A stretch of 64,000 bases of DNA from Cenococcum geophilum. Its lineage: Eukaryota. A program made the translations under genes and the position numbers. The number at the start of each line of letters is the position of its first letter. Positions within the stretch are counted from its first letter, which is position 1. The notes under the pieces are model-generated. The model searched no databases and was not told the DNA's origin. It saw only the letters and a program-made list of their open reading frames with translations. Shown here piece by piece: positions 5,468 to 40,871 of the stretch. The stretch is taken from the NCBI GenBank assembly GCA_050273025.1, contig CP158635.1, forward strand, positions 6,200,001 through 6,264,000, given 5' to 3'.

Positions 5468-7436
5468 TTTGTTACGCGGGAAACTGCATCAGGAAATAGA
5501 GGCTTCCTTTACGGGCAAGGCGCCCTCGCTTGTTGACCCCGGCCAAGCCAAGACTGCCCCTTGACCTTAACCATAAAAGGCCATTTCTCTCGCTACTTTT
5601 CCTCTTATCCTCCATCTTTCCTTTCTTCTAACACTGCGCCTCCTCCTCTTCTTGCTGCTAGTCCCTGGTATAGTTACATTAAGGTATTTCTGCCGTCCCT
5701 TTAGCGCTAATATATATGCAAGTCTAGCCCACTTATTACTTTATTCCCCCGTATCTTAGACTAACAATTAATATAGTTAACTACGGCCTTTCCAATAGGT
5801 GAGTTTCTATTCTACGGTAATGTATAGACGGTCTTAACCTCCTCTCTTAATTCCCGCCTCTAGAGCCGATGGCTTTAATTTTTATTAAGCTCTTTTAGCG
5901 CCACCTCTGTCCGCTAAGCGCGTCTATATCCTTACAATTCTATTCTCTTTCTTATATACACCCTCTCTTCTTTTGCCTTCTAGATAGCGTTAGTCCGCAA
6001 CCGTCCTATAAGAAGGGGGTTAGGGGAATTCCGCAGTTACCAGCCGCGTCAGCACTATTGTCTTATTTAACTCTGCTGCATATCTCCTTCTAAGGTAGGG
6101 AGGGACAGGCGTGCCGTATCCGCCCCCTTAAGGGCTTAAGCGAGCTTATGTCGCACTCGTTTTAGCTAACCTACGCGCTATTTTCTTACCTAGGATATGC
6201 TGTTAGTTAGACGGCCCACTTTAGCATTTACCGATGGCTAAAGCCACCTATATTATAGCTAGTATGCCTATTAGGCTACCCAGCGGAAAATCAGCTAGAT
6301 GTCGCCGATTTAAGCAACCACCCTATATAGGGCTGTGTTAGGTATTATTTAAACGGACATTATATAGAGTATTGCCTGGGTGGCTATGCATACCTACCTA
6401 GTGGTATAGTTGTATTACCACAGATGTTTTAGAGACACCGTTTAATCTACTAGTTTAGGGCTAAGGGGCTGTTAGCTCTGCCTAACTACTTAGCGGCAGA
6501 GTGGTAAAGGATTGATAATCCGGCCTTCTAAGCTATGGGGCTATAGTAGGAACTACCTAGATTAAAATTAGAAGGTTGTAGCTTTTAGGCGTATAATAGA
6601 TCTATAGCACTGCGGCACGACTATAAAGGAATCTAATACCAGCCAGCCATGTTAGGAGGGCGAGCATTATATAGCACCTTATGTAGTACCCTATGCAGTC
6701 CTTTACCTAGTTTATTTATGTATCTGTATACAATCACCATATAAGCGGCAGGCGTATCCGTCACTAGGTGGTTAGTATTAGAGAACCCCGCCTACCACTA
6801 ATAATAATACTACCTCCTTCCGTTATAGATAGCTTATAACGCGCATATATAAGTGGGGCTTTATATCCTATTAATACGAGCGGCGCAGAAGATTAGCTGG
6901 ATTGGCATTATTAGGAAGTGAATAGATACGTTAGCACTGCCCTTTACTAAGGAATAAGGGTAGAGAATTTAAGCCACTAACCTCCTAATAAGGGGCTAGA
7001 TGTAATAACTGTGTTAAAGCTAAATATACTAGCTTAGATGGATAGATATGGTTTAATCGCAATTTGCTAAGGGTGTTAATTAGGTGCTAGGAATTTAAGC
7101 CCTTGCAAACCTTTATACTTTATAAACGGTAATTAACCCCAGTCTATGCCAGAGGCGCATATATTAAATGCTTTAATTTAATAAGAAACTTAGGTAAGGG
7201 GTAAAGGGTAAGGGGCGATAGGTAAGTGCTAGCGGCGAAGGGAGAACTAACGTGCACTTAAAAAGACCTTTAATTCCCCCTTAAAGCTTTTAAAAGCTAT
7301 AAAATAATAGTAACTCTAATAATAATAACGTTAGCACTACCTTAGTCTTTATTTTGTATTCCTTTTAAAATTTCACTTAATAAGAATAATTTCTATACTA
7401 GTCCCCCTAAAAAATTAATAGCTTTATCTTAGCACT

Positions 7437-9303
7437 ATGCAATTACAGCCCTTAAGAAAAACGCGAGTAGTAAGCCTGAAAGGAGGAGCAGGGGAGTACC
7501 TCTTTTCCCCCTAAAAAGTTAAGAAGCATTATAAGCTTGGGCACTTAATAGTATATTATTCCACCTAGGGCCTTAATTTAGATATTCCGTCTAATAAAGC
7601 GCCTATAGACCCTATATATAATTATAAGAAAGCTAATAATAAGTATTACGAGGATAATAAGGATAACGAGGACAATAAGGAAGATTTCTATAGGGATAGA
7701 AATGACAGTTAAGTCTCTGGAGGAAGTAATTAAGGTAATTATCCTAGTAATTACCCTACTACTCTCCCTCTTTCCCTAGAAGTTTTAAATATGTAGTTTT
7801 AATAACTAATAGCAAATCTAATAGTTATTAAAGATGATACAGCCAATCTGGACTTAGAAACTAAGGGTAATAAAGCTAGTAATATTAATAACAAAGTTAA
7901 TAAAGCCGATAATCGACTAATACCTTATAGATTAGGTATACGCTTTCCCTTTTAATTTACAATGGCCTTATTTAATAATTAGTAGATAATAGGAATAATA
8001 GTAGTGGTAAGGGCAATAAAGATAATAAAGAGCTACCTTTGTTAGAAGCGCTGGAAGAGGAGATACGCGTACCTACGCATAATCGTACTATACCCTCAAC
8101 GCTAAACAGCAATTAAACGGATAATTTAGCTAAGGGGCGTCGCATTAGAACTACTTCGCAGTTTAGGTAAAAGCTTAGGATATTAGTGGCTGCTAGTTAA
8201 GAGTCTTTAGGAGCCGAGAAGTTAAAAAAGCGGAGGTCTAATTAGCTTAATTAACTAGGTAGCATTAATTATATCTCTAATACTTCTGTTAGTAAGAGTA
8301 GCGAGAGCGTACGACCTAGGAAGTAATAAAGGTTACCTGCTTCCCGGAGGATTACGCCTTCTAGCTCTCCTACCCTTAGCCTTAATAATGGTGACGGTAT
8401 TAAGGAGCGAGCAGCCTTTACTGCGTGGCCCACTAGCTCCTTCTCTTGGTACTATATATCTCCTTATAATACTAGACTATTAAAGAATGGGGCTAATAAA
8501 AGTCGTAATTGTATTCTAGATAATCTTGTTAACGGCTTAGCTAAAGAAAGCGATAATAAAGATGGCGAGAACGTTATAGACGAAGATAAGGCCGAGAACT
8601 ATAGCAACGGAAGTAATAATAGTGACGATATGGGTAATGACGACTTTAGGGATAATGACAGTAGTAATAGCGATAAGGGTAATGAGGCCCGCGGGTGTAT
8701 AGGGTAATGAGGATTACTAACCCCTATTACTAGTTAATTAAAGGTAAAGCGTGTTACGAAGTATTATCTCCAGCGGTCTTACTATTCCTCTTTAATTTTA
8801 TCTATGCATGCGTCTAACTAAAGCATTGCGCTTACTAGCAATTATTATAAGTGGGTTGTATCCCCTATATATAATTGCCTCTATACCTAAAAACCGCTAC
8901 TAAGCCCCGCCTCTGGCTTTAACTCCAATAAAGCAATACCAGGAGCCACCTTAAATGCTAATTCGGAAGAAATTTTACTCTAAGCAGCTTTTAGGCGCTA
9001 GAAAGATGGGTTATATGCACTAGATATCCTTCCTTAATAATTCCCTTTACCTTTTAACCTAGTTGAGCAGCCCTAGGAGCTAAAGCCCTAAGGGCTAAAG
9101 TCTAGAATAAAATTCACTGAAGAGGAAGACGCGCTGCTTATTAAATTAAAGAAAGGACGTAATCTTCTATAGGAATAGATTAAAGACCGCTTTCTAGAAA
9201 GAAGTCTTAGATTACTATAGGCGTATTACTATTTGAAATTAAAGGCCTGGCCTACCGCGTAGAAGAAAGGGGGCCGGCCTGCCGGGCGGAAGAGACGGTA
9301 GTA
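7437..9303 (+). pseudogene. Myb/SANT-domain gene with long acidic low-complexity N-terminal region (Starship 3'-end gene type)
   Basis: ~9100-9250 translates to KSRIKFTEEEDALLIKLKKGRNLL*E*IKDRFLERSLRLL*AYYYLKLK (SANT pattern F-T-x-E-E-D-x-L-L ... W-x-x-I ... R-S); upstream D/N/E-rich tract with ELPLLEALEEE; start codon tentative. Confidence 0.78.
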
Positions 9304-9475
9304 ATTGTAGTGCCCTTCTTTTTGGTTTAGAGATCTTTTTCTAGCTTTAGGTTCTACTTTTGGCTTATTCTATTTATAGCGCATTTCTTATAACGTCCTA
9401 TAATTTCTAATTTAAAAAAGTTAAGCCCTTATAAACTATACTGCCGGCTATACTATATATAATCGCCTAACTATA

Positions 9476-10023
9476 ATGTCGTCTAAAGCTGTAAGCTTAA
9501 GGGCCGCATAAAAAGGTCTATAAGAGTATTACTTTTTTAAGGGCGGTAAGCAAGAGCTACTTATTACCACTTATAACGCTACAGACGATAGAAAATGTAA
9601 GGCTAAAACTACGTTTATAACTTGGCTAGCTAATTAAAATTATGTAATATAGTTGAAACTGAGCGGTAGTCCGAATAATATAAAGTTAGGCGTTAATAAT
9701 TGATTAACTTATATATACGATGTAAAGGCGTATAAACTAGCTATAGTTAATTTGCCTTATAAATAAGAACAAGCTATAAGAATCTAATCCTTAGAGATAT
9801 TTTAGTTAGTGGAGGGGCTATATATATCTAGTAACTCTAATCCCCTAGACTTCGGCTAATGTATAGTTGAAATGCGCATTATAGTGGACGCCTTACCCGT
9901 TGTTTAGCTGGTGGCCTAATTATATACATAATATTCTGCGCTAGAAAGCTTTGATAGTAGGGCAGGGCAAATCCGGCCGCAGCTTAGTCCGAGAGGTAGC
10001 CGCTTAGCAATTCTTTTATATAA
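9476..10023 (+). pseudogene. small hypothetical gene relic with one intron
   Basis: ATG at 9476, coherent frame broken by RIP-type TAA/TAG stops, GTAAG...CTAAT...TAG intron-like segment; no recognisable domain. Confidence 0.4.
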
Positions 10024-10839
10024 GCCTTTCTATTAGGCATTAATAACTAAGTAGCTATAAACCTATTAACTGCAGTAATACCTCTATTTTCCCTTATAAA
10101 TTTCCTTTAACCCTACTTCGCTAATTATTCGTAGCGCAGTTCCGTAAAGCTGCTCTCCGTTTAAGCCTATAATCTACCTCCTTTTATGCTTTTTACGTTC
10201 TGCCTCTTATAGTTATCTAGCAATTCTATTCTTGCTATTAAGGTAAATATTAGCTTGGCTATTCCGCGCAGTATATGCCTAATTACTTATATCTTCTATA
10301 ATAGTTGTGCTTTAATGCGCATGTGCTTTACGGCCTTTTATTCTAAAATAAATTCCTAAATCAGCCGCTATTCCTCCTTAGATGGCTATCTATAATTAAA
10401 AACGCTTTATAAAAGATAATATTTGCTTAATATTACACGTCTATAGAATACCTCTCTTTTATAGCCACTAGTCCCGCTGACTTGCGTAGTCGCATTTCTA
10501 GCTATATAGATTATATCCGCTAAGGCCGGGGATAAGGCGATTAGTGGGGAATAGGAGGAGATTGGAGGTTATATATTTAAGATAACGGAGGATATAACTA
10601 TGATATTTAAAGGCAGATTATGCAATATTAAAGACGGCGAAGGAAAGCTAGTTAAATATTTAGGTATAGAAGATGGATAAGTAACAAGAGAGGTTCTTAC
10701 TGGGTATAAATGCTATATAATAAGGGCACGGGTTAAGTTAGAGAAGAGGTAATAAGAAGAGGTAGTAATAAGTGGTAACCTAAAGCGATATATGCCATTT
10801 ATTGTGGATAAGAGTTAATCTTTAGCTTCTTTTATAGTA

Positions 10840-12020
10840 TTTTCCTAAAACTTTAAAGTATCTAGGTCCCCCAAACCAAATAATTTAAAGATATTCTATC
10901 TATTTTTGTAGCCGATCTTAACTAATAAAAGAGCGTCCTTATTGTCTATTTCTGGCATATATATAGATAGGCAATTTATAACCGCTAGTCCTCCGCTCTC
11001 TTTTTCCTTTCTTTATAAATTGCTTATTTCTATCCTGGTGCGAAATGGCTTAGGGAGATTTTTAATTATATGGCGCCTTATAAATAAGAAAGATAAGTAC
11101 TAGCCCTTCCCTAGCAATATTGGATTTCCTGTTTAATGTTAACCACAGATATAATATCTTATTAAAGGTCATTTTATAGACCTAGAGTTTGCTATAATTT
11201 TAACTGGGGACGCTTTAATGGTGGTTTATTTATAACTTAATGATATACTAGTATAATGGCGCTTGGAGGACTCTTAGAAGAAGCGTTTATCTTAGATAAG
11301 TATTAATATATTAAATTTGGGGAACAAGGTATCTAACTATTGGTTTTAGGATTATTAGATAAGATTATACTTTCCTTTTATAATAAATCTGGCTCTAAAA
11401 TATATAAGTAACTAATTAACGAGTACTTAAGACTTATATACCAAGCGTTTAATAAGCGTCCTAAGGGATTAGAGCTTTAGAATGCCTCTCTAATAACCAA
11501 AAGTCTTAGGCTAATGTTAGGTGTTCCTCTAATAATATTTATTAATAATTTATTTAAAATATAAGGCTCTTTTATACTAGTAGAGGGATCTACCTCTAAA
11601 GATAGACGTTTTAGAGGCGAAGGAATTAACGTGCTAATTAAATTGGCCTTATAAAGTGTACTTACAGCAACTATAAGACTGCGGGGGTGGGGGTAACTCT
11701 CCTACTATTCTCGAAGCTCTCGGAGGAGGTTTTTTACCGATATTGTTGCTAGCTTTGAGATAGGCGCTATTAAAGTGTATAGGAAGAATATTTTAGGACC
11801 TAAGCTGATGAAAACGTCCGTTAATAGAGTGCGTGTATGTAGCTTTACACTTTGTCGCGAGCTTGATCGTTTCTCTAAGGATATCACGTTTTCTTATAGT
11901 ACCTTAAGGCATGATTTAAACGCGTTGTTCTGGTAGGAGGGTAATGGATATATATTAGCGTCGAACGTCTTTCTTTTTTCCTTAAGTAGCTCGTAAAACT
12001 AGTCATTTGGTACTATTAGA
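10840..12020 (-). pseudogene. fungal hypothetical protein relic
   Basis: Includes ORF 11705-11887; downstream reads ...GGLAVINCLSIYMPEIDNKDALLLVKIGY..IFKLFGLG; function unknown. Confidence 0.45.
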
Positions 12021-12675: not shown

Positions 12676-15152
12676 ATATCTAAGCCCGTTACGCCAGCGC
12701 CTTTACTGCCTTATAATACCCCCCCTAGTAGTCTAAGCTAAACGCATATATATTATAGGCAGTTAGCGCAGCATCTTATAGTTAAAGTGCTTATAGCCGT
12801 ATTAAAGATAGTCTAAGCGGCCTAACCTCCTCCACCTCCTCTACCTCCTCTACCTCCCCCTACGAGTTTAGGGGTTAAAGAGATACCCGAAGTAAGAGGT
12901 TCTAAGGTTAAAGTTAAGGTGTTAAATAAGATGTATATTCGCGAAATCCCTAAAATATACTTAGAAATACGCTAATATAGCGTTTACTACAGCTGGGATA
13001 AATAAAACTGCCAGTATAAGACTATAGAGACTTCGCCGGATACGTTAAGTGAGCGTGATATATATAATTAGTATATTTATATCCTTCGGAAGAAATTTAG
13101 TTTATCTTTTAGGTGCCTTTAAATATATTAACTTAGATGCTGACTTTAAGCCAGAAAAGGATAAGAAAGACTGCAGTACGTACCTAAGTATAAATTTAGG
13201 AGAAGTAAGAGACGCCTTATAGGTGGTGCTAAACGGCGTATAAGCTATCTCCCTTCGGGAAGACAAGCCTATAGTAAGTGGACCTTTTTATAGATATAGC
13301 TTATTCTAATTTAACTTCTAGATTCCTATAAACCTTATATTTAATTTCCTACCCTAGTTAAAAACATACTAGGAGAGTCTTTCTCCCAACTTAATCGGCG
13401 CTAAATACTTTTAGGGGTTACTAAAATTCCTTAAAGACCATTTCGCGCCTATAACTAATAGTCTCCTGCCGCTTCTACACTATAGCGAAATTAATTTCAA
13501 TTTTCTTTGGGCCTTATTTAAACCAAATACGCATGTTCTTACGATTTACGAAGGCTTGGATTAATTAAGATGCCTTATATATAATTTAGGCAACTTTAAA
13601 ACCTCACTTTTTGGCGAAAAGAGCTTCGAACTTAACTGTTACTATTTTAGCTATAATAGGAAGGCGTTTGGCGAGGTAAAAACCACCCTCTCTATTCCGG
13701 AATTCTGTTTAACTATAAAAATTATATCTCTTAAAGTATTTCCGCTAGAGCGTTATAAGAGACAAGCCGAGATAAAGTAGGATCTTATTAGTAATAGCTA
13801 GAAGTTCGTGTCTTTAAGAGATATTAACTACCGTAAATATAAAGGGATCGTATTTTTCTGGACTAAAGATGGCCCGTTGAGATTTTCTATAAGCGGCCGC
13901 ATTATGGTGGACGCGATAGCATTTTATTATTAGAATCCTAACTATAGCAAGCAACTAATCGCTATAGATGCGTACGGAATAAGCGTAATTAATTAAGGGA
14001 CCAATTGGCAAGGGGACGTAAAGAATTAGCGTTTAGTTCCTAAGGAGATAGGAGATAATAAGTATCTAATCTGTCTACTAACAGCCCTAGCCTTTAGTTT
14101 AGCAGATAAAAAATAGGGTTAGGCTTTCTATATACTGTTTCTAGAGCTAGCGAATTATATATACTAATACAAGCACTAATAGGTAAATTTGCCGTCGCTA
14201 ACATTAAGGATATTAAATAGAATGCCTTAGCATTTAAGTCACTCGCAATTAAGGAGGATAAGAAAATGGTACTTTAAGGACTTATAAGAGCTACTAGTCT
14301 AGGTCTAGGAAATTAAAGTTTAATAATATAATTAAAGGGAAGGGGAAAGGCCTAGTTTTCTTACTACAGTAAGTTTTCTGGTAAGGCATTAGCTGTTTTA
14401 AAGGCTGACCGTTTTAGTGGCCCACCTAGGGTAGGAAAGACATTAATAGCTAAAGCACTTGCCGAATATTAGAGGAGACCCCTTTATGTGGTTTGTTCCC
14501 CTTTATAAGTATATTTATATACCAGTCTGACTATAATAAGGCTTATATAGGAGACCTTAATACGGATCTAGCCCATTTAGAACAAAACCTGGCTCTAATA
14601 GTTAAGAACATTTACTGCTAGAGCGCTGTCCTTCTTCTAGATAAGGCCAATGTCTTTTTTATAAAAAGAACTTTAAATAATGTCTAACGTAACAGCTTAG
14701 TATCCGTCTTCCTGCGATAGATAGAGTATTTCTAAGGTATTATGTTTCTCATAACAAACAGAATTACCGTATTTAATGCAGCTATATAGAGTAGAATACA
14801 TCTTACACTTAGATATAACGAGCTAAAGAAACTAGCAAGAGAGTAGGTATGGAAAACCTTCCTAAAGTAAGCCAATACTACTGCTAATATCTCTAAAAAG
14901 GATATAGAGCGGCTTTTAAACCATTAATTAAACGGAAGACAGGCAAGGCAATATTTAAGAGAGAGTTTTGAGGCTAGTGCTAACATACTATATTAGATTA
15001 AGAACACTATACGGATTAGTTATGGCTTAGCTAAAAGTAAGGGGGAGAAACTTATATATAAGCATTTAGGCAAGGCTCTTATATTAAACTAAGATTTTAA
15101 AAGTAACTTTAAAGGCGCTGGACTAGTTAAGAATTTAAACTTATATATATAG
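12676..15152 (+). pseudogene. fungal AAA+ ATPase, copy A (multi-intron)
   Basis: Walker A GPPRVGKTLIAKA (~14419-14457), Walker B VLLLDKANVF (~14627), LVSVFLR..EYF*GIMFLITNRI, SRIHL; N-terminal FDFLWALFKP-like and LREDKP motifs. Confidence 0.9.
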
Positions 15153-15309
15153 ATTCGCTTATATATATAAAGTATTAAATACGTCTTATAGATCTTATAG
15201 CTAGTAGTATTATTACTTATTACTTTCTTAAAATTACTTTCTTACTCTTATAGCAACAAGACCTATATAGTAGGTAGTAGCGTAAGCGAATTATTTATAG
15301 ATTTGGGAA

Positions 15310-16112
15310 TAGGAGAATAGAAGCTATAGGGCATTAGTTCCTATAGGGGAGTAAAAGATATAAGTATTGGTTCCTGTAAGGAATTAAAAGCTATAAGGTA
15401 ACGGAGAAAGCGGGTATTAACCCCCATAGAGAACCGCAAGCTATAGGAGATTAGTTTCCGTAGGGGAGTGGAAAAAATCGCCATTAGTTCTTATAGGGGA
15501 GTAAAAGCCGTATGGGAGTAGGAGCTATAGGGTATAGTTCTTACAGGGCAGTAGAAGATATAGTTACTATATATAGGAACGGAATTTATAGGGGATTTAT
15601 TCCATAGGGGAGTAAAAGATATAGCTAATAGTATCTGGATCTAGGAATAGAGAATAGAAGCTATAGGGCATTAGTTCCCGTACAGGAGAGGAAAATATAG
15701 CTATTAGCCCCCGTAGGGGAGTAAAAGCCATATAGGAATATAAGCCGTAGGGGATTGGTTCCTATAGGGCGGTAAAACACGTAGGCATTAGCACCTATAG
15801 GGGATTCGTTAGCGCAGGGGATTTATTACTATAGGGGATTTATTGCCGTAGGGGAGTGGATCCCGTAGGGGAGTGGATCCTGTAGGGGATTTATTGCCAT
15901 AGGGGAGTGGATCCCGTAGGGGAGTGGATCCTATAGGGGAGTGGATCCCGTAGGGGATTTATTAGAGTAGGGGATTAGATCCTATAGGGGATTATTAAAA
16001 GTAGGGGATTGGTTTCTATAGGGCGGCGAAATATATGGGCATTAGCTCCCGCAGGGGATTTGTTCAAGTAGGGGACTTATTTAAGTAGGGGATTAGCTAA
16101 AGTAGGGGATTA
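15310..16112. repeat. degenerate tandem array, ~17-18 bp unit (CCGTAGGGGAGTGGATC / GTAGGGGATTTATT)
   Basis: Dozens of TAGGGGA cores; inverted homologue at ~51300-51900. Confidence 0.9.
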
Positions 16113-16537
16113 ATTCTCCTATAGCCTCTATTTAGACGGTATAAGGCGGCTTCTAATAGGCTAGAGAGTAGGTTAGTATCTTATGGAAATTTAAAGCCTA
16201 TATAGGATAGTAGGGTATAGGGGCCTAGCGGAAGATTGGGTTATCTGCTTTCTTAGGTTTATTTAGCCTAGGCGACTTACCCTATGCTATTTTATATACG
16301 TTTTAACTAAGGCTGCTACCTAGCCTTAGCCGCCTAAATCCCTGCAAAACTTAAACCTATATAGTAGAAGAATACAGGAAAATAAAATGTTATTCTTTCC
16401 CAGGTTTATTTAGCCTAGGTAACTCGCCCTATACTGTTTCATATGTGTTTTAACTAAGGCTGCTACCTGGCCTTAGCCGCCTAAATCTCCGCAAAACTTC
16501 ACTTATATAGTGGAAGAGCAATAAAATATTATTCTAT

Positions 16538-18963
16538 CTACTTTGCTAGCACCTTTAGATCCTTCCTTGCTTCCTAAAGCACCTCCTTTATTTAAGAAGG
16601 AAGTTTTTCATTATTTCCCTTTCGCCTCCTACTACCTAGAAATACTACCTTCCGCAATCTATTAACCTAAGGGATTAGTAGCTAATAGTACGGTAAAAAG
16701 TTATCACCTATACCCTTAAGAAAATCCCCTTTGTTATCCACTTCTCCTTTCTTTATCTTAGCTAGCTCTTCTATATCTATAGAATTCCACTTATTAAACC
16801 TATTAATAATATTACCTTTCCTATTAGGTCTATTATAGTGAATGTATATCTAGAATAGCACCTAAAAGAACGACTTAAAATTATGCTAAGCTAAGTATAT
16901 CTCGCCTAGGAGCACTCTAATCGCCATAAACGCTCTTATGCTGGTCTTGCCCCGCGCTTCTAAAGGCCCTTCTTGCTGCTCCTTAATCGCAAGATCGAAG
17001 TCGATTAAGAATGCTGGCTAAAAAGGATTATTGTTTTCCTTGTTTATTATAAGGTTGCCTATTAAAATATTATATTAGATAATGCTAGCCCGCGTATATA
17101 AAGACTTATATCCTTTAATGCCACCCTTTAGTGCAGTAAGTATTGCAGCCTAAGAGCTTGCCTCGTAAAGAGGCTTTTTATAGTCCCTAGTAATAACGCG
17201 TTAATGCACTTAATTTAGGGTTATAAGGCGCCTTCCGCCTTTAGGCGGAGAGCTTGAATACGTGCGCTTGCTAAGCGGTAATAGGGCGTTAGTGTAGCTA
17301 GACAACCTTTTTCTACTAGAACTTCGGCCTTGCCTTATACTGATTTTTACTCTAGCCGGTTTTAAAGGTATTATTAAGTCTTCTAGCTTATAGTTTGTTG
17401 CTCTTGTAATATTTAGCCCCTTGTGGACGTTATTGCAAATATTATCTTCTTTACCGCCTATATAAACTGTCTTGTGGTGATAGTACCTAGCTATATTAAC
17501 CACTTCTTTCTCTGTTACCTTACGCAGCAGTTTACCTTCTTCCTCGCGCTACGGGTACTGCTACGAGTCTTTAATAATGAGGGGTATCTTAGAGATATCC
17601 CCCTTATGGTGTACTTTTTAGCAAGTAGTCGCTTAACTGGCGATATAGCGTGCCCGCTTTATAGGTTTGTTAAGGATAAGACGCTCGGTCTAATTATTGC
17701 GTATAACCTTAATATATTGCTTACCGTCCGATGTTAAAATAGTAGGGTTAAACCTAAGCTGCTTCTCATTTATTTAGAGAAACCCTAACATTGCCGAGGT
17801 AAATTATAGTCCGTCTTTATTAATATCGAATAGTAATAATATAATGCCTCCTACTTGGTTATACTCCTATAGCCGTATAATAGATCTATAGAGGGTAAAG
17901 CCTAGGATAAAGCGACGAGTGTCCTAAGCAGCAAAAACTTCTCTTATATATTTTCCCAAATTAAACCATGCCTGCGAGGCTATATTGGTGTTTAGATTAC
18001 TCTTTAGCTCTCCTGGCATAAGTATATATAACTAATAGCATTAAGAACTTTTGCTAGTTATTAGATCATCCACAAAACCGATATTTAGCTTTCGCTTTGC
18101 TATAGACCCTTATAAGGGCTGCTTAGTATATATAATAAGCGTTTGTTATATCTTTAGGGCGGACCCATACTCCTCTACAAAGCCTAAAAATAATTTAATT
18201 AGGTTATTAAACCACTCTAGGACATTATCTTACTCTGCGCTTCTAGGCTAGTTACGCCAGCCACCCTTAGCGTATAGTAGATTGTCCCCTTCCTTATATT
18301 TCTTAAAAACGGCAGCGCTTGCCTCTTTAAGACCTTCTACCCCCCTAAAGAATACTTTATATAAGCCAGGAATCCCTACGTAAAGAGGGCCTAGCTCTTC
18401 CTTTAGAATATAATCTACGTATTTCCTATATTCGGACGAGTTAGTAAAGCTGCTTATATTGCGTAGATATGGGGTTTAAACGTAGAATAGTAGCGGTTAG
18501 GGAGGAGGCGTAGACTCTGTTATGGTGGCGTATGCCTTTTTCTAAATAACCTTGTTAGGTTTAATCCGAAGGATCGCATTTAGAAGAGGTAGGAACTGCT
18601 TAATATTAAAGTCGTTGGAACCGACCGCTGAATTAAGTCTCAATAGATTAATAAGAAGCCTTTTGTTACTGCCGTTAGATAGTAATAAATAAGAAGTGGG
18701 AAGGCCCTATAGAGCTAGTATTAGATCGAGCAAAATATTCTTTAGTTCTATAAGCGTTAGATGGAAACTTATAATAGGTATATTAGCAATTACCTTTATT
18801 ACCTATCTAGTATAATAAGTCTAAAGAGCTAGAGATGTCTAGATTCTAATAAACTAAGTTAAATAAATTGTGAAAGTTATTCAGTCCTTCTCCGATAGGT
18901 TTCGTTTTAATTATCTCTAATTAGGAGAAATTTGCTATTATAAGTAAACGTACTAAGAGCTAT
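16538..18963 (-). pseudogene. FunK1 (fungal-type) protein kinase, copy A
   Basis: ILKEELGPLYVGIP, RKLNIGFVDD, ILMPGELKSN, LIIKDS*QYP*REEEG, VVNIARYYHH, AFLIDFDLAI, GKTSIRAFMAI motifs; includes ORF 17210-17503. Confidence 0.9.
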
Positions 18964-19499
18964 GTTGGGAGGGCTGACGTGGTAGGCGGGTAGGTAGATA
19001 AGGAGGGGAGATTAAAGAGGCTAGTATATAATGGATGGTATAATGGCAGATAAGTGTAGGGAGGTTAAGTACACGTTGAGCGCGTCTTGCAATAAGGAAA
19101 TAACTAGGGAGAAAAGTATAAGGAAGAAAGTAGGGTATAAGCGAACGCGAGGATTAAAGATTAGGTGTGGAAAAGTTAAGCTAACCTAACGTGGCTTAGA
19201 CTAAGGCTTTATAGGGCTTAGTTAAATACTAAGCTATAATGACCTAAAGTGGAAAGTTGTAGGTAGCATTTATTAGTAATTATAGTTATTAGCTTTTAGT
19301 TTATTCCGTAACGCGTAAGGCTTAAATAGAGTGAGGCTTTAATATAGCGATGCTAAAAGGCGCTAGGTAAGGTACAGCTGGCGACAATAGGTTGATTATT
19401 AGGTTGGTTATATAAGCACCTATAATCGATTACGTAGCTGGTTCTAAAATAAGCTAAACCTAATATGCTAAATATAGATATAGCTAACCCTATTTTATA

Positions 19500-19815
19500 G
19501 CGCTTAATCGACCTATTTCCCGTAATTGGGATCTAGTTCTTAGAACCGGATCCTTTTTCGGGATCGCGCCCTTTTTATAGCAGTTAATTGGTCTACTTTA
19601 TAAACCCAAATTAGGATCTTGGTTTTAGAATTAGATTTCGTTCCTAGAATTGTAACTTAAGCTATAACTGAAAATAGCTCCTTTTTTCTAAGACCATTAA
19701 ACCGCTTAGCTTAACGCTATACCTTTTTAGCTACGTTTAGTACGTTTGGCTTAGAATTGGGATAGGATATAATCTTTAGAATTGGATTTAGTTCTTAGAA
19801 CAAGATCCCATTTTT
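19500..19815. repeat. degenerate short repeats/palindromes (CTAGTTCTTAGAA-CCGGATCC type) upstream of FunK1
   Basis: Recurrent GATCT/AGAATT units; inverted homologue at ~47670-47970. Confidence 0.55.
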
Positions 19816-22800: not shown

Positions 22801-22924
22801 GAACCTCTTTAATATTTCTAGATCTGGGACTTATATATTTCTTTTTTTTATAGTTCTAGTATTTTCCTAATATTTGCTTTCTATTTATATGCTAGGCGTT
22901 AATAGAGGGCGCTAGGTTAGATTA

Positions 22925-26500: not shown

Positions 26501-26759
26501 TTCTTACCTAATTTAGAGCTTTAGATAAAGTAGCCTCCTACTACATTACTTGTAGTCGTATCCTATCCTAAATCTAAATAAATTAATATTGCTATTTGCC
26601 TAGTTTACCTTATCTTAATAGAGAAGCTAGACGCAGTGTCCACAACTATAGTTTGAAATTTAGGCGTAAAGATTATAGAGGAACCTTCTAATTAACCAAT
26701 CGTTCGTTTATGCTCCACTCCTAAGTAAAGATAATATACTAACTATTTTATAAAACAGA

Positions 26760-27160
26760 CCTAAGAATACGCGTGCGTATATCCGGGGTGTTTATATAAA
26801 AGCATATATAGGAACGATTAGTTCTGTTATAACAATTCTCTACACTTCTAGATAGATATATAGGTATGCCCGTAGAAAACGGCGACTAGCCAACAATATC
26901 TGGACCTAAGCTATAACATGTAATACTTTAAGTAGCATCTTTAAATATACAAGGGTACCGTTCCTTCTAAAGATATTAAGTTATCTTATATAGGCCGGAA
27001 TGGCCAATTCTAATATTAGTGTAGCTTTTGCGCGTAACTGCAGAAATTAAAAATAGTGCGTAATAAGGCTTAGCATAAGCGTGCTAAGTATATCCTTAAT
27101 CATTTTAATAAAGGATATACTCTTAGCAATTAGTGGTATTTAGAGTTAAAAGGATATAAG
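26760..27160 (+). pseudogene. C2H2 zinc-finger transcription-factor-like relic (gene probably extends ~26300-28700)
   Basis: YACVYPGC...; YIGRNGQF*Y*CSFC ... KA*HKRAKYILNHF, matching the fungal 'IGRNxQxxFWCGFC...AWxERFxHIxxHF' pattern after RIP reversal. Confidence 0.7.
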
Positions 27161-28889
27161 GGTGAAGTTAAATAGAATAACTCTTAGCTTTTATCTACCG
27201 TACTTCTATAGTCTTGGTTTTTAGATTATAGTGGCAAATATTATAGGGTTTATAATTTTATAGAACGTAATTCATATTAGATTTTAAGGTCTTATCACCC
27301 GAACTTTATAACTATAATTTATCCTTTAACCCGTCAGCGCCCAATAAGTAAGTGGTCCGTATACGAACTTTAAAACAACGTATGCCTATATAGATTCTAT
27401 TAATTAATTACCTACTATATTGCAAAATACGGTTCTTTAAAAAAGATAAGTGCTAGCTACCTTATATTAAGCGACTTAACTCCTAAAATTAAGCGTATAT
27501 ATTAAATTACTATAAAATCAAAAGCTTTATATTCCTTAGCACGAGCGTTAAATTTAGCTCAATTAATTGGCTAGTTCTTATTAATAACCATTAGACGCGA
27601 ATTAATGGGTTAAGGGATAAGTGCGGTTTTGATATAAAATGCTCTTAATAAATCGCTATAAATGCTACAAACGCTACGATAGATACTACCCTAGCCTAAG
27701 TACTAGCGCAAAGAAGCGGATACTTAAACGGCTTTAGATATTAGAGTTTCCATCTCCAATCCTATTACTTTCCTACAATTTGTAATTCTAAAAACCTATA
27801 CATTCCAATAAAGATATTACCGTAAACATTACAACATATACCCACTACCTTGTATTAGAGGATTTCTTTAGAGGTTAGATGATTTACTTATTAAGAGGTA
27901 ATAATCTATCTAAGACAAGATAAGGAGAATTAAACTTACTATAGCTGGAAAAAAGCTAATAGTTGCACTAAGTATAATTATCCGCGATGCTTTATCCGAC
28001 TAGATTTGTTTTACTATAACCTAAGAAGATACATTACAGTCTAGACGCGTACGCCACTCCTACTTTATAACGAGTTGGGCTACAGTAAATAGAACCTATA
28101 CCGAGACGCTTCTTAAAGCTGTTAAGACGCGTACTAAAAGTCAGCTCAATATTAAGAATAATAGCACTATACCAGAAGGCTGGAGTAGGGAAGGGAATAA
28201 AATAGTAACAATAAGTACCTGGCGTACTAGGCGGGGGCTTTAGCGGTATTACTTATAGGAGTTCTATAGACTTATAACCTAGTTCCCTATTAGTAGATTC
28301 CTTTAATATAGTGGCCTTATAAATCTAAATAACTAATGTAAGTAATAATAGAGACTCTAGCAACTAAGTTATTAGCTATAATAAGTCTTAGGGTAGGTAG
28401 ACTTTCCGGAGCTTCTTATACTGCTAAATAAGAAGCCTAATAGCAAGTTTAGGAAAAACAAAAAGGAGGAGTACCTAAAGCAAAAGATGCTCCTAAAAGT
28501 GGCTTAGTTAGTAGTACTAATAGAGTATAATACGGAATAGTATAAAGCAATAAAAGAACTATATATAGAAATACGTAGCGTAGGCAAACTAATAATTATA
28601 CATTTTTATAACTAAAATAACTAAGAGCGGTAAAGGGAGAAGGTAACTATATCCTCGCCCTGGTCAACCTACCGCCCTTATATCTATACTGGCGATACCA
28701 GAACTTATAGGGAAGTGGCCTTAGATATCCCATTGCGACTTATAAAAGAACTAATATAATATTAGAAATGCTTTTCTAGGGGGTTATATACTATCTCCTA
28801 AGGTAAACAAAGTTAGTATAAGACTATAGATGTGTTGGGGCAGGCGGGACGGGCTAACTTTAGGGGGCTAGGGGAGGCGTTTTACGCGG

Positions 28890-28998
28890 TAACCACTAAA
28901 TCCTAGACGTAGCGCACCGCGACCACTAAATTATGGACGCCTCTATACTAGACTACTAAATTATAGACGCCTTTATACCGCGATTACTAAATTATAGA
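28890..28998 (+). repeat. ~30-bp tandem array (ACCACTAAATTATGGACGCC core), 4 copies
   Basis: Directly visible; inverted homologous array at 32949-33068. Confidence 0.85.
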
Positions 28999-29849
28999 AT
29001 ATGCTGAAAATTAGAGCAGCCACTTACGGCCAACGTGGCAATCACCGCCTCTTTTAACTAAGCATATTTGAATCCAAATCTATAGCTTTAACGTAGTTAT
29101 TATCCCTTAATTAAAGATCGAATAAGCTAGTAATTATAAATAAGGATTAAAATCTGTAAGCAAATATCAAAGTAATACTAAGTTATAACTAAATCCGGCG
29201 CCTAGGATAAAACTTTATAACATCCAAGAAATACCAATTAATACTAGTTAGAGATATGGTTAGATAGCTGCTATTAAGTAAGAAAGGTTATATAAAAACG
29301 AGCCGCCACCTTGCTCCTAAGCAGTCGAATCAGTATATAACGAGTCCCGCTTAACCTCCAATCCTTCTCACAAGTCGGGCGTAAGGCTTAGAGGCTAAGT
29401 TTTATTAATAGTTGCCTTATATATATAAGAGCTGTCCACCTCTTTAGGTACACTATTAGGCTAACTTACGTTTTAAGTGCATATATACGGAGTAGACGCA
29501 ATAATAGATTTAGTGCTTTTTAGTTATTAAGCCTCCGTTATACCGACACCCTAAATTAACTAGATATACTATAGAACTAAAATAAGGTCAGTAATATATA
29601 TATAACTAGATAATTATAGAATACTAAGCTAATTATTAGAAAATGCTATTCTAAAGGGTAATAAATGACTCTACCGCGAGTGTTTTTTAGTAGTTGGATA
29701 TAATGTGCTAGGTAGTTATATACCTAGTATATAGTGATAAGAACTAAGAGTATATTGCTAAATATATAGTATATAGGGAGCGCCTTATTATCAGACAAAT
29801 AAAAGCTTTATTAGGGTATAGGTTATTTCTTAATTAAATTTTGCTCTCG

Positions 29850-31800
29850 TTTACGTGTTTAGTTTTCCGGTTCTTTTAGCATTAGTAAGGTAACTAGCCC
29901 TAAATTTAAATCGCGTCATACAAAGGTTAAGATTTTTTCTGAGTTAAAGATATAAGTTCTCTTACCCTTAAAGTCTATAGACACTAGGAGGAGTAGTCGC
30001 TAGACCTATCCGACAAGAACTATACCCGTTTTATCTTATAGCTTCTATAAGATTAAGGCATTATGGTCCTTAAAGGCGCAACCAATACCATTCCAAAGTA
30101 GCCGCAAATTAATGATAATAAGGTTATGCCAGTTTTCTTTTCTTTAAGGAAAAAAAGCTCTACTTACTGATACCTTTAAAGTTTATAAATACCCTTATTA
30201 GTTCTGCTAGGGATAGTAGTTTCTAAGTCTTATACGTTAAAGAACACAATTTCCCTTAATATACCCCACTCTTGATTGGATAATCACTAAATTAGAAGCA
30301 GCTAGCTAATAACGACGATATTATCGCCATCAGTTGCTATTACCTTAAAGGAGACATTAATTAGAGATAGATTGTATAGTACGACCTAGCCCTTTAAAAG
30401 GAAGAGACTAATAATATATCTATTATTAAAGCATATAAAGGGGATATATAAGTAATCGCGCCTACCGATTGAGCTAGCTCTTATTAAAATTAGTGTTATT
30501 TAGAATGGGTAGCTAAGACGATTAAGTCCAACTCCTACTGTTAAAGAAGAAAAAGTAATAGTGGTTTATTATATGTGGAATAGGAATAAGCCCACTTAAT
30601 AAGTAGTAAGACGTAACTTATTTGCGTTATTTAAGATATATTTTATCTAATCTCTTTACTAAAAGTCCTAAAGCTATAACTACTAACCCTAGCCCACTCT
30701 AAATATAAGATTATTAAAGGGAACGTTAGCAGCGCAAGGTTCTATCCTAAATTCAAAAATCCCCTTACTATAACCCCCTAGTTTACCTGCCGAAAACTCT
30801 ATATACGGAGCTATATATCCGAAATCCCCTTTAGCACTATTTCTACTAAACCTAACCATAGCGGCACTTAGTAACCCTAACCTGAAGTCCCTTCTAGCTT
30901 TAGGTTTAATAGAAAAATTAGTCTATAAATTTATAGTAAATCTAAAACCCTCTTTAGTAGCGCTTAGTGCTATAGAGAACTTAAATACCCTTCTACCCCC
31001 TTATGCTTTAGGTTCAATCGCACGTAGCATAGTACTTAGTACTATAGTGAATTCAAAGTCTCCTCCCGTAAAAGACGTTGGGATAGGTATCTAAGTGCTG
31101 TCTTCAGCTTTTAAAGTCAAGGGGCCTATTTCAGCGCTTAGAGAAATAGATTCTCCTTAGCTACTGCTATTAAAGCCAAATTTTAGCGAGTCTATATAAG
31201 GCGTGTAAACAGTAAAGTCTTCCATTTATTTTATTTAATTGCTAGCCTCCGCCAATTACAAGTTTATATCTTATAAGCATTTCTAAAATAATATAATCTT
31301 ATAATATACTCTTCTTAATATATATTATAAATGGTGTGAACATTTAAGTCTGCGATAAAGCTTCTATACCATAAGCTTTCCGCTTATATTAAAGAAGACT
31401 AGCGGAAGAGTCAAATTAGTGGCTGTACAGCAGGCACGTATCCTAGTCGAGATAACGCTTTAGAATCTTATGCCTAAACCCCTCTATAGTTTTAATATGC
31501 TTATAATATAAATCTAGACGCTAGTAAATTCTATTGCAATCTTTAACAGAACAATCCCACCCTCCTTTTAACTTTAAGGGTCGAAAATATCTAGCTCCTA
31601 TATAATGCTTAAGGGCGAGAATACAACCGGTGACAGCCTTGGTGAAGGCGGCTTCGTCCACTTATATCATAGGCGATAGCCTAAACATCTCCTCTAAAAC
31701 ACTAACTCACATAGTAAGATCTTTATACAATATAAATAAACGGTATTATAGGTCGGCATCTTTTCTCTTTAATAGATATCGACGTTTAGCATGTCGGGGG
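29850..31800 (-). pseudogene. C2H2 zinc-finger-containing hypothetical gene relic
   Basis: ~31350-31560 reads WDCSVKDCNRIY*RLDLYYKHIK...TCLLYSH*FDSSASLL*YKRKAYG (two C2H2-like fingers after RIP reversal); ORF-like sequence continues downstream. Confidence 0.55.
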
Positions 31801-35583: not shown

Positions 35584-36583
35584 ATGCCATCTAAGAGTGC
35601 TCTGTTTAGCTTAGCGTAGCTTATAGATAGCGAGAAATATAGCGACTTAAAACTTATATACTAGGGGCTAGAGTTTAAAGTCTATAAAGCGATTATATAT
35701 ACCTAATCTCCTATACTTACAGCTGCCTATAATAAAGGCTTTTAGGTAAAAGCTAATTAAACGTCTAGTGGAATTAACCCTAACTAACTAACTAACGGGT
35801 AGGAGGCAGCGACTAATATTATAAATATTAATAAGTTTAATTCCGGTACCGTTAAGAGGATAATCTAATTTATGTATAAGAGGGACTATAAGAATAGTAA
35901 GGAGGAGCAAGGATCTAATATTAATGACGCCGATGCCTTATCGCTATCTAAACTAGATAATAGCGGTGGTGATAATAAAGACATAATAATATAGCCGACG
36001 ACGGCCTATATCACACTTCGTCACGTCTATATTAATGCAATTACCGATTACTACAATATACTACAGCTAAAAGAGCTTATAAATATAAAAATCTAACACA
36101 TTTTAGGAACCAGCTAGTCCGCAAATAGGTTTCCTAATATTATTAAGGATGTCTTTAACCTAATAGGTAACTTAGTATTATATAATATAATTACCTTAAT
36201 AACGGCTAAGCATATTAAAGAGCTTATTAAACTTAAGGACTTTATAAAGCTAGACGTTATAGGCGATTTCGCTATTAGTATTATATAGATAGCGATTACC
36301 GCATCTAAGGACATAGAGGAAAATTTTATACTAAAACTTTAAGCTATCCAATCTCAGCTATAACAAACAGAATCACTACTTTAATCCGCCAAGGTAAGGT
36401 ATGCCGCGGCTAAGCATAAAAGCGAAAACATTAATAACTATCTTAATACCCTCTGCACGACTAGGACCTATTGTAATATTAATTATAAAGCTGAGTTTAT
36501 ATATTACATTAAGGACAGCAGTTATCTATCCGACCCTAATCACCCTTATATACTTTGTTACAAAAGGTGCAAGCATTATATAT
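35584..36583 (+). pseudogene. BTB/POZ-domain protein relic
   Basis: MPSKSALFSLA*LIDSEKYSDLKLIY*GLEFKVYKAIIYT*SPIL...; VKRII*FMYKRDY; HVYINAITDYYNILQLKEL; intron at ~35746-35801. Confidence 0.88.
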
Positions 36584-36749
36584 AAGTAAAGATACATAGC
36601 TTAGGAGATTAGCTTAGGTAGGAAGTTATTATATAATACTTCTCTTCCTTTCTCCGTTTAGGTTGATCTAAGAAATTTAAATATATATCTCGTTTATAGT
36701 CAGTCCGTTAGATATTATACAACTATATTATCTATCTTTTATTAGCCTC

Positions 36750-36840
36750 CCCTTACCTTACCTCTCACCCTACCCTTTATCTTATCCTTTACCTCACCCT
36801 CACCCTTACCCTTACCCTTACTTATTACCCCTTACCCCCC
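36750..36840. repeat. hexamer microsatellite (ACCCTT/ACCCTC)n
   Basis: Directly visible between the convergent BTB and captain 3' ends. Confidence 0.75.
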
Positions 36841-37077
36841 TAAACGAATTATAAAATCCTAGTTATTATATCTATTCTACTAAATACTAGAATAGAATTA
36901 GATAATAATAAACTAAAATAAAATAAAAAGTAGTAAAGAATAATAAGATAAGCGTATAATGACTAGGAAAAGGTCCTATATATAAAAAAACGTATGGTTT
37001 TAAATTTACTAGTTATATACCTTTCTATACATACTAGAGGGTTAGCATAGGATTCTCATATAGGTAAGATAACTTAC

Positions 37078-39599
37078 CTAGCGGTGCCTCTTAATCGGAT
37101 ACCATACGCTATATATAAGGGCTGCGTGATTTTTAAAATGCTTAAGTCCTTTAATCTACTCTAAGTAATAAGGATGCTTATAGTAGAACCCTTACCTAAA
37201 TACTCCTTCTGTAACGTAATTATTAAGATACTTCTATAGTATATCCTTCTTTATAAATAGGCGGGTCTGCCTTAGCGTTAAGAGTTAGTTATTACCAATA
37301 TAGATAAGATAAATAAGATTAGTAAACGTTATAGGATACGGCAGCTGTATTATCTTAACACCCTCTTCCTTAATTAGGACCGCGCTCCGCGTCTTATCTA
37401 GGTTTTCTTAAAAAGGCGAGTCTAAGCTAATCTATTCTTTCTGCCGCTTTGCCTACTAATAGGTACTAGTATCGGCGTCACTTGCACCTCTTTTTACGCC
37501 TATTATACTTTAGTCTACTTTAGACCCAAGTTAAAATCCGATAGCCTTACTTAGAATCCCATTCTACCAACTCTCTTATTAATTATAATACTTAATAAGA
37601 TTACGGATAAACTTTATACGGAGTTTTATAGCGTGTCCTTCTTTAAGCTTATTTAGCGGCTAAAACAGTAGTTTAGCAATAGTAGTATATTCGCGAAATT
37701 CATACTATACAGCTGAATAGGTGGGAATTTCCGTCCTAACGCTACCACTAAGCTGTCTTTTAATATTGTAATCGTTAATAGCGTTGTGAAAATTAAGAAT
37801 AACCTAGTCCTCTTTTTATTTACGTAGGACGTTTGTAACACTATAAAGTTTATATCTAGCTTCGTTATAACGGTTATATAGTTTTATTCCCTTCGCGGTA
37901 TTAATAGGGTGATATCCCTAGCTCCTGATCTTTTGCTTATATCGCTCTTATTTCTCGCAAAGCTATAGAATATTAGGGCGTTAATTAAGTTCTAGCTAGA
38001 ATTTAAGCTTCTACTTATTAGTTAGACCTATAGGGGCCCGCTCGTCCCTTAAGATCCCTATCTATACGGTATATTAAATAAGGTCATCCTGTAATAAAGT
38101 CCCAAAGTAAATTAACTGGAAATCGCGCTTAATTAAATTAGGTAAATAAAACCGTTAGTAGGTATTACCGTAATAACCTATTGTCTGATTTCGCTCTTCT
38201 AGAGTAAGGGCGCCTAGAAAACTTAGTCAATATATACACTTATGTCAAATTAGATACTTACTATTTAATTTCCTTTTAGACGCTCGTTGTAGCTAGTAAA
38301 GTTTAAGCAATTTTTTAAACCCGGCCACTTGGCCTAACTATATATAGTAATCGCGGCATTTCTGGTAAGGGAATGCTTTAGTGTCCGACACTCCCCTATA
38401 ACTAGCCATCATCTTAATATCTCAAAAGATGGGTCGTTTCTTTATCTCCTTCTTGAACTTCACTTTAAGACTCTCTTTTTTCACTAGGATTTTAAATTTA
38501 AAAATCTCTTCCGGCGAAGTGTAACGGCGTTAAAATGCATTATCTATGATAGTAAGGCTTATAAGATAGAATAGGATATAAAAAGCTAGGATACTTTTAA
38601 GACGGAAAATAAACCTCTTACTATAGGTCTATTAGCACCATTCGCGCCATCTTTAATTAACGTCGCTATATACCGTCTACCTATGCCTCCAGAATTCTTA
38701 ATATATATAAGACTTATAAGGGCAACAGTTATAGTTTAATTAAAGTTTTTTACATTGCGAACTCTTAGGATTGTAATATATTTATATAAAAGCGCTTTAT
38801 TGGAGCCTCTTACGCTTAAACTTTTAATAAGAGCTTAGGGTCTTATTGCCGTGGCACTAGAGAGGAGGAGGATTACTCCTATCTATACTTGAAAACGACT
38901 ATAGTAAGGCTTCGCGTCTATTATTTAATGGGCATTAATAATTATATATAAGTCCTGCATATATATAGCATCCTTTTCTTTCTCTAATATGTCCAGCTTA
39001 TATATTAGCGTTAAGTAGGTTAGGATCCACTGTAACAAATTAGCTAGGATTTTTTTTTAAAAAATTAAAGATTACCTATATCTTATATATCAAGTTCTAT
39101 GCTATTATTCATACTATAGCCTACCATATCTATAAATTTGTATAGTATTCATCTCCAGTATAACTAGATCGTGCTTTCCTTCTTAATTTAAGAATTCTTT
39201 ACGCGCCATTTAAGGTATATTTTAAACGTGTCGGCTACACACTAACGAAGGGCCTTAGTTGGGTTAGACTTAACTTTTAGGCAGAACCTAAATACAAATT
39301 ATTAGTATTATAAGGTAAATTTTGGTTTAAATACAAACGAACTTTTCTTAATTCCGAAACTTACGCTTAATAAAAGAAGTAGACTAGGGCTTCCGTTTTA
39401 ACTTCGCCCTTCCTTAATCCTTATAATACGCAATCCTCTACTATAAATATTCCCCCTTAGAATCGGCGTCTTCCCTAGCTCTAGAGTTAGAGCTTAAATC
39501 TAAGTTTAAAGCTAGCTTAGAATAAAACAGCTTACCTAGTTCGGAGTCTAAGCTAAAGGCTAAATCTATATTTCGCCATTTCTTACTTTAAGAGGGCAT
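37078..39599 (-). pseudogene. Starship captain, DUF3435 tyrosine recombinase (RIP-inactivated)
   Basis: FKIYLKWRVKNS*IKKESTI*LYWR; LLLSSATAIRP*ALI (catalytic R region, ~38840); YIKNSGGIGR; LY*LQRAS (~38280); ERNQTIGYYGNTY*RFY; ERAPIGLT; C-terminal zinc-finger ending HFKNHAALIYSV; several introns. Confidence 0.9.
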
Positions 39600-40871
39600 G
39601 GTGGTTAAACGCGTAGTGTCTTAGTGCTTTAGCAGCTACTAGTTGCTTACACATAAAAGCTAGCTTAAGAGCGACTGCTATTAATAGGAACGCTAAAAAA
39701 GGCTCTACGGGAGATCGGCGTTCTTAAGAGCGGGATAAGGCAAAAAAATCCCATGGGTAGAAACCTAGAAATTAAGTATTAAAAGTGAACGACATAATAG
39801 TAGGGGAAAATGCATACGTAGCTACTATAGGAAAAGGGTTGAAGGAGCGTAGTATAGAAGGAAGGTTTCGTCGTGTAAGGGTAGTGCTTTTGGCAAAGGA
39901 TGAGGATAAAGGTAGGTGGTAGACGTCTATAGCTTCTTAAATAACGTTAGCCGCCGAGGGACGTTTGGGGAGCTTCTAGGTTTAGTAGGTAAATAAGGAA
40001 GACCCTACCGTCCTTGGCATGCTTAGTATATTGCAAAAGCGGCGATAGATATAGGTCTAAGCGAGGAGAAACAGCCTCCTAAAACGGGGGGAAGGAGCCT
40101 CCAAATCCGGCTGCGTCTTCCCCAATAATAAGATTCTAGTAGTTATAAAAAACCTATAGTTTTGCTTTAAGTATATTATATAGTTCTCCTTTAAACTTTT
40201 TTTTCTATCTAAATATACCTTTATTAGATTTATAACTTCTTATAGTAAGGGCTTACTAGTTAGCTAGGATAGAGAGGGTAAAGGTAGTAAAGGGGGTAGT
40301 AGAAGAGCACCTCTAGGTAGAAGAGCACCTTTTAGTAAAAGAGTACCTTTAGGTAGGGGATTAGTATTTTAGGGGTTTTAATATAAATTAAAGTTGCCTT
40401 CTAAAGAATATAGGTTAGTTTTAGGTTTTTATAGTTAATATATAATCTTAGCTTCCGTCTATACTAGTTCTTCTATACTAATAATAACAGCCTAAATATT
40501 GCTAGTAATTAGGTTACTATTCTTAGCAATATATACCCTATTTCTATAAAGAAAGTCTTAGAAATTCTAAATAATATTAATATTACTAAGTGCCTAAGTG
40601 TTGGCGGTCTATCCTATAAAATCCTCCCTAAAATATTTCTATAGTTATAAATTAGTATAGTATCTACTTTAGTAGAATAGAATATAGTATAGGAGAAAGC
40701 TATTAACTTATTTTGCGGTATAAGTTATTATATTAATAGTAAATTCGTCCTAATTTTTATTAATAAATTTTATATACGTAGCTACCCCTAGTAGTAAGGA
40801 GTCTTCCTAGTTATTTAAAGTAGGTATAGCTATATTTTTGGAGGAAGGGGAGTATTATTAGTTTAGGAATT

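Follow-up and report, generated by a model that had tools for sequence, protein, structure and literature searches.

In the available parts of PMC11162782 and PMC9156397, Starships are defined by a captain gene of the DUF3435 type at the 5' end, followed by cargo and bounded by short direct repeats and sometimes by terminal inverted repeats (TIRs). The same portions report Starship insertions in AT-rich transposable elements (TEs) of both classes, and apply the name 'derelict' to copies that are degraded or inactivated by repeat-induced point mutation (RIP). In parallel, the accessible portion of a 2025 study (PMC12256816) describes a MYB/SANT gene that lies at the other edge from the captain and has the opposite sense; it co-occurs with a captain in 23% of the non-redundant elements of that study, whose six examples are flanked by TIRs. 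Here, we describe a 34,665-bp insert at positions 5468-40132 of a 64-kb stretch of Cenococcum geophilum contig CP158635.1 (assembly GCA_050273025.1, positions 6,200,001 to 6,264,000), the whole of which is called the window. Sequence comparisons drew on the window itself and on public proteins and contigs. The insert is, very probably, one dead Starship copy that was moved by a DUF3435 captain and lies nested in a long terminal repeat (LTR) retrotransposon. It shows all the published traits apart from a direct repeat that can be resolved and mobility that can be demonstrated; the copy no longer moves or encodes protein. A dead captain is the derelict state of a Starship member and gives no ground for exclusion. 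A near-complete, RIP-destroyed Starship inside a retrotransposon had been proposed in an earlier sequence-only reading of the window, and this proposal is borne out by the captain, the Myb gene, the cargo relics, the collinear flanks and a TIR at the break points.

The insert resembles the Myb-bordered Starships of PMC12256816 in having a captain at one edge, a Myb gene of opposite sense at the other edge, TIRs and cargo in between. As far as the accessible portion of that paper goes, Myb genes are tied to larger elements and the element sets come from Aspergillus and Penicillium, whereas the present copy is RIP-dead and small (34.7 kb), its Myb gene starts 2.7 kb from the edge, and its closest protein relatives are found in Dothideomycetes (Zopfia rhizophila and Glonium stellatum). 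With the derelict and TE-inserted Starships (Gluck-Thaler et al. 2022, PMC9156397; Gluck-Thaler and Vogan 2024, PMC11162782), as described in the sections available, the insert shares RIP inactivation, a TE-rich and AT-rich location and insertion into a class I element. The Macrophomina 'Derelict' regions in those sections have no captain, whereas here a full-length captain relic is present and both ends are recognisable. Derelict Starships, insertion in AT-rich TEs and the captain/Myb/TIR layout are thus already in print, judging from the available text of the three sources (PMC11162782, PMC9156397, PMC12256816).

The limits of the insert are read from its host, an LTR retrotransposon present in the window as one split and one uninterrupted copy. 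The host copies and the two ends of the insert are as follows:

1265-41887, split by the insert: host LTR retrotransposon, copy 1, with CTAAT at 1260-1264 and at 41888-41892

1265-5467: left half of copy 1, with the left LTR at about 1265-1482 (from LTR alignment and the target-site duplication, TSD)

40133-41887: right half of copy 1, with the right LTR at about 41670-41887 (from LTR alignment and the TSD)

55686-62055, minus strand: copy 2, uninterrupted LTR retrotransposon, with CTTAT (plus strand) at 55681-55685 and at 62056-62060

5468-5510, plus strand: left TIR arm, the 3' end in captain orientation

40090-40132, minus strand: right TIR arm, the 5' end in captain orientation

Both flanks of the insert are collinear with the one uninterrupted element at 55686-62055, in reverse orientation. 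Self-alignment of the window pairs 1771-5467 with 61439-57737 at 90.6% identity over 3.7 kb, and pairs 40133-40866, 41314-41523 and 41506-41894 with 57231-56533, 56535-56325 and 56068-55679, respectively. Copy 2, which is paralogous and not allelic, was used as a stand-in for the empty site; alignment to it gives sharp breaks at 5467/5468 and 40132/40133, with up to 7 nt of ambiguity at the right break. The left end had been placed correctly by the sequence-only reading, and its right end, 40136, is moved to 40132. The four LTRs, aligned and read to their ends, are ~218 bp each, with TG/CA-type ends and 5-bp TSDs that read CTAAT in copy 1 and ATAAG in copy 2 in element orientation. The outer CTAAT is a duplication made by the retrotransposon, and the two flanking halves therefore come from a single retrotransposon insertion, as had been claimed. 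The two copies differ by 341 substitutions, 321 of which are transitions.

The assignment of this host to copia, for which a pol with RVT_2 and with integrase ahead of RT would be expected, was not sustained: 18 frame translations covering both copies and both strands returned no Pfam family at E up to 0.05-0.1, and three minus-strand frames of 62055-64000 also returned none. In all Pfam scans, frame translations were used with stops read as X, a procedure that is insensitive in strongly RIPed DNA; it nevertheless detected DDE_1 and DUF7025 relics in equally AT-rich DNA outside the insert. The host element is either more thoroughly destroyed or non-autonomous. As for its strand, a purine-rich tract points to one strand and stop density to the other. 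Copy 1 also holds ~447 bp (40867-41313) with no counterpart in copy 2, either an internal duplication or a small insertion. Two direct repeats of 102 bp that are 95% identical (40871-40972 and 41214-41315) bound this extra piece.

The two ends of the insert match each other as inverted repeats at exactly these break points. When 5468-5510 is compared with the reverse complement of 40090-40132, ungapped and at zero offset, 26 of 43 positions are identical and a further 10 differ solely by C/T or G/A, the changes that RIP makes. Among 200,000 random pairs of 43-mers drawn from the insert, the mean number of identical positions is 11.7, and the probability of at least 26 is 1.5e-5; for identities plus transitions, the probability of at least 36 is 2.5e-5. 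Across the window, a RIP-aware form of the motif occurs at the two termini only. The repeat is visible only to an ungapped, transition-aware comparison: gapped local alignment of the insert ends missed it (score 21 versus 18.9 +/- 2.6 for shuffles). The repeat, which sits exactly at the breaks, ties both termini to a single element. The TIR is new here, having been absent from the sequence-only reading, and strengthens the identification as a Starship.

Inside these ends, the two genes that mark the layout are found at opposite edges and in opposite sense:

37078-39599, minus strand: captain relic, DUF3435, in four frame pieces with 47 stops

8186-9298, plus strand: Myb/SANT (Myb_DNA-bind_6) relic, in a single frame, from the P0004 alignment

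The captain starts 533 bp inside the right end (40132) and reads inward as the first gene at the 5' end, with no other gene relic seen between it and the right end; its place and direction are as first described, the distance having been given as 537 bp. A search of the region with the Pfam model DUF3435 (PF11917) gives E 2.6e-28 on the minus strand, stops read as X. Its best relative, P0001, is a DUF3435 protein of 783 aa from Zopfia rhizophila (E 2.7e-135), residues 35-781 of which map from 39554 down to 37087, so that 747 of the 783 residues are covered. The extent proposed for the gene, 37078-39599, agrees with this alignment, with an ATG at 39599 that opens MPS*SK where the homolog has MPSRTRK, and with a stop near 37080. 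The frame changes across three gaps of 49, 38 and 53 nt, which are short introns or frameshifts. The open frame is lost, with 46 stops in 776 aligned codons and one more in the first 15. At the C-terminus, the zinc-finger-like cysteines of P0001, CLLC and FCWDPSC, read YLIY and YYKHPYY in the relic.

The Myb gene reads inward from the left end. P0004, a protein of 372 aa carrying PF13921, aligns to the relic over residues 1-371 with E 1.4e-149, and a Myb-like protein of Glonium stellatum matches at 54%. The relic itself gave no match in a Pfam scan and has 20 stops in its 371 codons. A Myb/SANT gene near the far end, opposite in orientation to the captain, had been claimed from the bare letters, and the alignment over 371 residues confirms it.

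The decay of these genes has the direction expected of RIP. GC content per kb is 26-43% across the window, which is AT-rich throughout with the exception of a satellite island at 42.7-44.1 kb, and a RIP dinucleotide signature is present in every segment (TpA/ApT 1.5-1.7; (CpA+TpG)/(ApC+GpT) 0.31-0.77). Only three open reading frames (ORFs) of at least 120 aa exist in the window; all three lie within the satellite island, where they are probably repeat artefacts, and none falls within 5468-40136, so the element is indeed invisible to ORF calling, as stated at the outset. The island itself (42717-44085) is GC-rich (52%) and consists of three satellite arrays with 12-, 20- and 18-bp units. Mismatches between relic and homolog that can be explained by C>T or G>A alone were counted in the direction from homolog to relic and in reverse. 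For the captain against P0002, 107 of 115 mismatches are of RIP type from homolog to relic and 5 in reverse; for Myb against P0004, 104 of 120 and 10; for a BTB relic against P0009, 78 of 90 and 7; and for the captain against P0001, 201 of 341 and 31. Once RIP-type changes are discounted, the captain, Myb and BTB relics are ~96-98% identical to P0002, P0004 and P0009, which come from public contigs 1.3-1.7 kb long. This identity indicates that close un-mutated relatives of three element genes exist elsewhere. RIP acts on duplicated DNA, which makes at least one other copy of the element in the same nucleus probable.

Between the two marker genes lie the relics of the cargo, one of them within a larger repeat unit:

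11480-12007, minus strand: relic of a conserved protein lacking any Pfam family, mapped by tblastn, with 139 representatives at E<=1e-3

13175-14954, plus strand: DUF7025/AAA ATPase relic, its extent taken from paralog alignment

15235-19915, minus strand: repeat unit A, 4.7 kb, holding the FunK1 relic and 17-bp tandem arrays (self-alignment and Tandem Repeats Finder, TRF)

16847-18046, minus strand: FunK1 fungal kinase relic, Pkinase_fungal E 4.1e-44 and 1.3e-47

35584-36579, plus strand: BTB/POZ relic, with 15 stops in 332 codons

With the captain and Myb included, six coding relics are verified in the element. The DUF7025 domain (PF22942) is found at 13469-13753 on the plus strand with E 5.7e-18, and the Walker A region of AAA (PF00004) at 14413-14496 on the same strand with E 0.034, below its cut-off. 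The Pfam BTB match of the BTB relic is likewise below its cut-off (E 0.0039), and P0009 (292 aa, PF00651) aligns to this relic at full length, residues 1-291, with E 3e-108. None of the 12 top matches scanned for the conserved protein at 11480-12007 carries a Pfam family. For two relatives of this protein, P0037 and P0054, most differences from the relic are RIP-type changes that run the opposite way (6 of 7 and 14 of 17 mismatches, respectively); on this count, they look like translations of other, more heavily RIPed copies of the gene. Arrays with a 17-bp period occur at 15795-16012, inside the FunK1 repeat unit, and at 22921-23434.

The sequence-only reading had listed a cargo of about ten relics, with a BTB/C2H2/FunK1/AAA set. 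The BTB, FunK1 and AAA/DUF7025 members are recovered here. A separate C2H2 gene is not: the only zinc-finger-like stretch seen is the C-terminus of the captain, which is probably what was taken for C2H2. Beyond the six verified relics the remainder is no more than plausible; the insert holds several further low-stop stretches. No gene is identified in ~15 kb of the insert (19.9-35.5 kb), and scans of 5401-11402 and 23601-30202 gave no Pfam family. The scans of the insert covered six frames over 5401-36702 and the minus frames over 36599-40140.

Part of the cargo has a counterpart outside the element. Unit A has a second, inverted copy at 51968-47554, with sharp ends and 70-85% identity; the copies show 658 differences, 520 of which are transitions, and no TSDs or TIRs were seen at the sharp ends of this 4.7-kb FunK1 unit. 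The outer copy adjoins a DUF7025/AAA relic at 54319-52503 (minus strand), which has 38-40% protein identity to the inner AAA gene (13175-14954). An AAA+FunK1 module is therefore present within the element and again beyond it, with the relative order kept, and may be a nested repeat or cargo common to another decayed element. Within the outer module (47554-54319), the FunK1 DNA at 70-85% and the AAA protein at 38-40% have diverged unequally. The outer unit holds a similar 17-bp array as well (51407-51515).

The other neighbours of the insert are also decayed. A DDE_1 (pogo/Fot1-type) transposase relic at 55154-55681 (E 1e-8) stops exactly where LTR copy 2 starts. Beyond the other end of copy 2, on the minus strand of 62061-63000, an N-terminal DDE_1 part with an 'NFDEKG'-like start of the DDE domain was recognised by eye; this stretch gave no Pfam match. 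A weak PigL_N match (E 0.002, 18 bits, below the cut-off of 27.2) lies in RIPed DNA at 44440-44680 (minus strand), past the satellite island and before the outer FunK1 unit.

Several observations weigh against a single Starship insertion. There is no clean empty site: copy 2 holds 505 bp (57232-57736) between its counterparts of the two junctions, and copy 1 lacks this piece both at the junction and throughout the insert. The direct repeats are ambiguous, for two candidates lie outside both ends of the insert, namely TCTAGT, perfect and just outside (5459-5464 and 40135-40140), and TAGTTAT (5461-5467 and 40140-40146). Since AAA+FunK1 is also found outside, that stretch of the interior may represent a nested insertion of later date, or else a repeat that is shared. 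In the scanned frames of the insert, DUF3723, ferric reductase (FRE), patatin-like (PLP) and NLR genes, which often accompany Starships without being required, were not found by a scan that is insensitive in RIPed DNA, in line with the earlier statement that none was seen. Reverse transcriptase (RT), integrase and DDE had no match in these frames either, and the same insensitivity makes the absence of other TE genes inside weak evidence.

Defiant of Macrophomina phaseolina, whose host is likewise a Dothideomycete, has the target site ACTA in Table 1 of PMC9156397, as given in the part available. In captain orientation, ACTA occurs here within the heptamer ATAACTA on both sides of the element, a weak 4-mer match that serves as a lead only. 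No Rfam family is found in the window, hence no 5S rDNA target. Four metagenome loci that encode un-RIPed relatives of the captain are too distant for a boundary test, only L001 being similar at the DNA level (~70%, in short pieces). The upstream region of another, L003, scores 28.5 against the element's 5' end, which is not significant (shuffles 23.2 +/- 3.0, maximum 36.5). In L003:1-200, AT-rich, RIP-like DNA gives way to a GC-rich element that bears the captain, the change lying ~400 nt upstream of this gene. The end of the L003 flank, TTTTTAACTA..AAT, resembles the flank here, TTTTTTATAACTA..AAT, in an alignment that is not significant, and the 'TTTTTA..AACTA' common to the two flanks is an anecdote only. 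Among the sequencing runs listed, 20 of 24 contain part of 5000-9500, with shares of 0.14-0.53, and the other four give 0.00-0.04; these shares carry no evidence on strains, habitat or mobility.

The missing 505 bp can be read in two ways. In copy 2, TAGTTAT (and TTATAAT) repeats border the piece; in copy 1, the insert has TAGTTAT next to it on either side. The host copy may already have been without the 505 bp, in which case the insertion was clean and one short word is the direct repeat, or the 505 bp may have disappeared during the insertion or later. For such a loss, the captain could have recombined an element end with a look-alike target 505 bp away and deleted the intervening DNA, a route that we regard as unlikely. 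This 'adjacent deletion' is known for bacterial transposons and integrative elements. No description of it for Starships was met in the portions of the literature available, in which no search was aimed at adjacent deletion.

Some of the same observations would suit a composite that was never one mobile unit, made of a captain pseudogene, neighbouring DNA and several unrelated insertions piled up at a single place in the retrotransposon. The window is a nest of TEs, with LTR copy 2 sitting inside a DDE_1 transposase relic; the 4.7-kb FunK1 unit is sharp-ended and has a second copy outside; 505 bp of host DNA are missing; and ~15 kb of the insert are without an identified gene. Such a pile would hardly be expected to carry inverted repeats in its outermost 43 nt at zero offset, or a captain and a Myb gene at opposite ends in the published arrangement, and no RT, integrase or DDE match was found inside by the same scan that caught the DDE_1 relic outside. 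We consider the composite improbable. A block of ordinary host DNA that was never inserted, lying between LTR halves of two different retrotransposon copies joined by rearrangement, would account for the 505-bp gap and for halves that do not abut perfectly. It is contradicted by halves that keep the order and orientation of copy 2, with one TSD, CTAAT, at their outer ends, and by a block that carries inverted repeats of its own, all of which leaves it only a very slight chance.

Equally far-fetched is an element of another class, either a TIR transposon with a Myb partner, such as a Harbinger-like element, or a tyrosine-recombinase element of the Crypton type. Cryptons measure a few kb and are not known to carry TIRs. 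A size of 34.7 kb with several cargo genes fits Starships, and the only recombinase found is DUF3435, the domain of Starship captains. The combination of TIRs and a Myb gene is also the Harbinger layout, a likeness drawn in the accessible portion of PMC12256816, but no DDE transposase is found within 5468-40132 in the scanned frames; that Cryptons also use tyrosine recombinases is stated in the available part of PMC13465315.

With a single Starship as the preferred reading, the captain would have cut and rejoined DNA at the ends of the element and at a short target of AT-rich sequence within the retrotransposon. A published proposal for such a layout is that the Myb protein helps to bring the captain to the end repeats, and the same may have held here. 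RIP would later have struck the element and all the surrounding DNA, in a nucleus where at least one other copy of the element probably existed.

The insert is a well-preserved fossil whose kind of element is already known, and what it adds is the 43-nt TIR and an apparent loss of 505 bp at the target. It allows a small Starship to be mapped completely and at base level, with its TIR ends, captain, Myb gene and cargo, where gene callers see emptiness, and it shows that reading through stops recovers such fossils from RIP-degraded, AT-rich regions. It also extends the captain/Myb/TIR layout by an example from the Dothideomycetes and gives a dated order of events, from LTR retrotransposon insertion to Starship insertion to RIP; beyond these points, it is an ordinary derelict transposon. 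The near-identical, un-RIPed captain, Myb and BTB proteins encoded on short public contigs raise the possibility that this small Myb-type Starship survives, still alive, in some close relative. If these un-RIPed relatives belong to a live sister element, the fossil shows where its ends should be.

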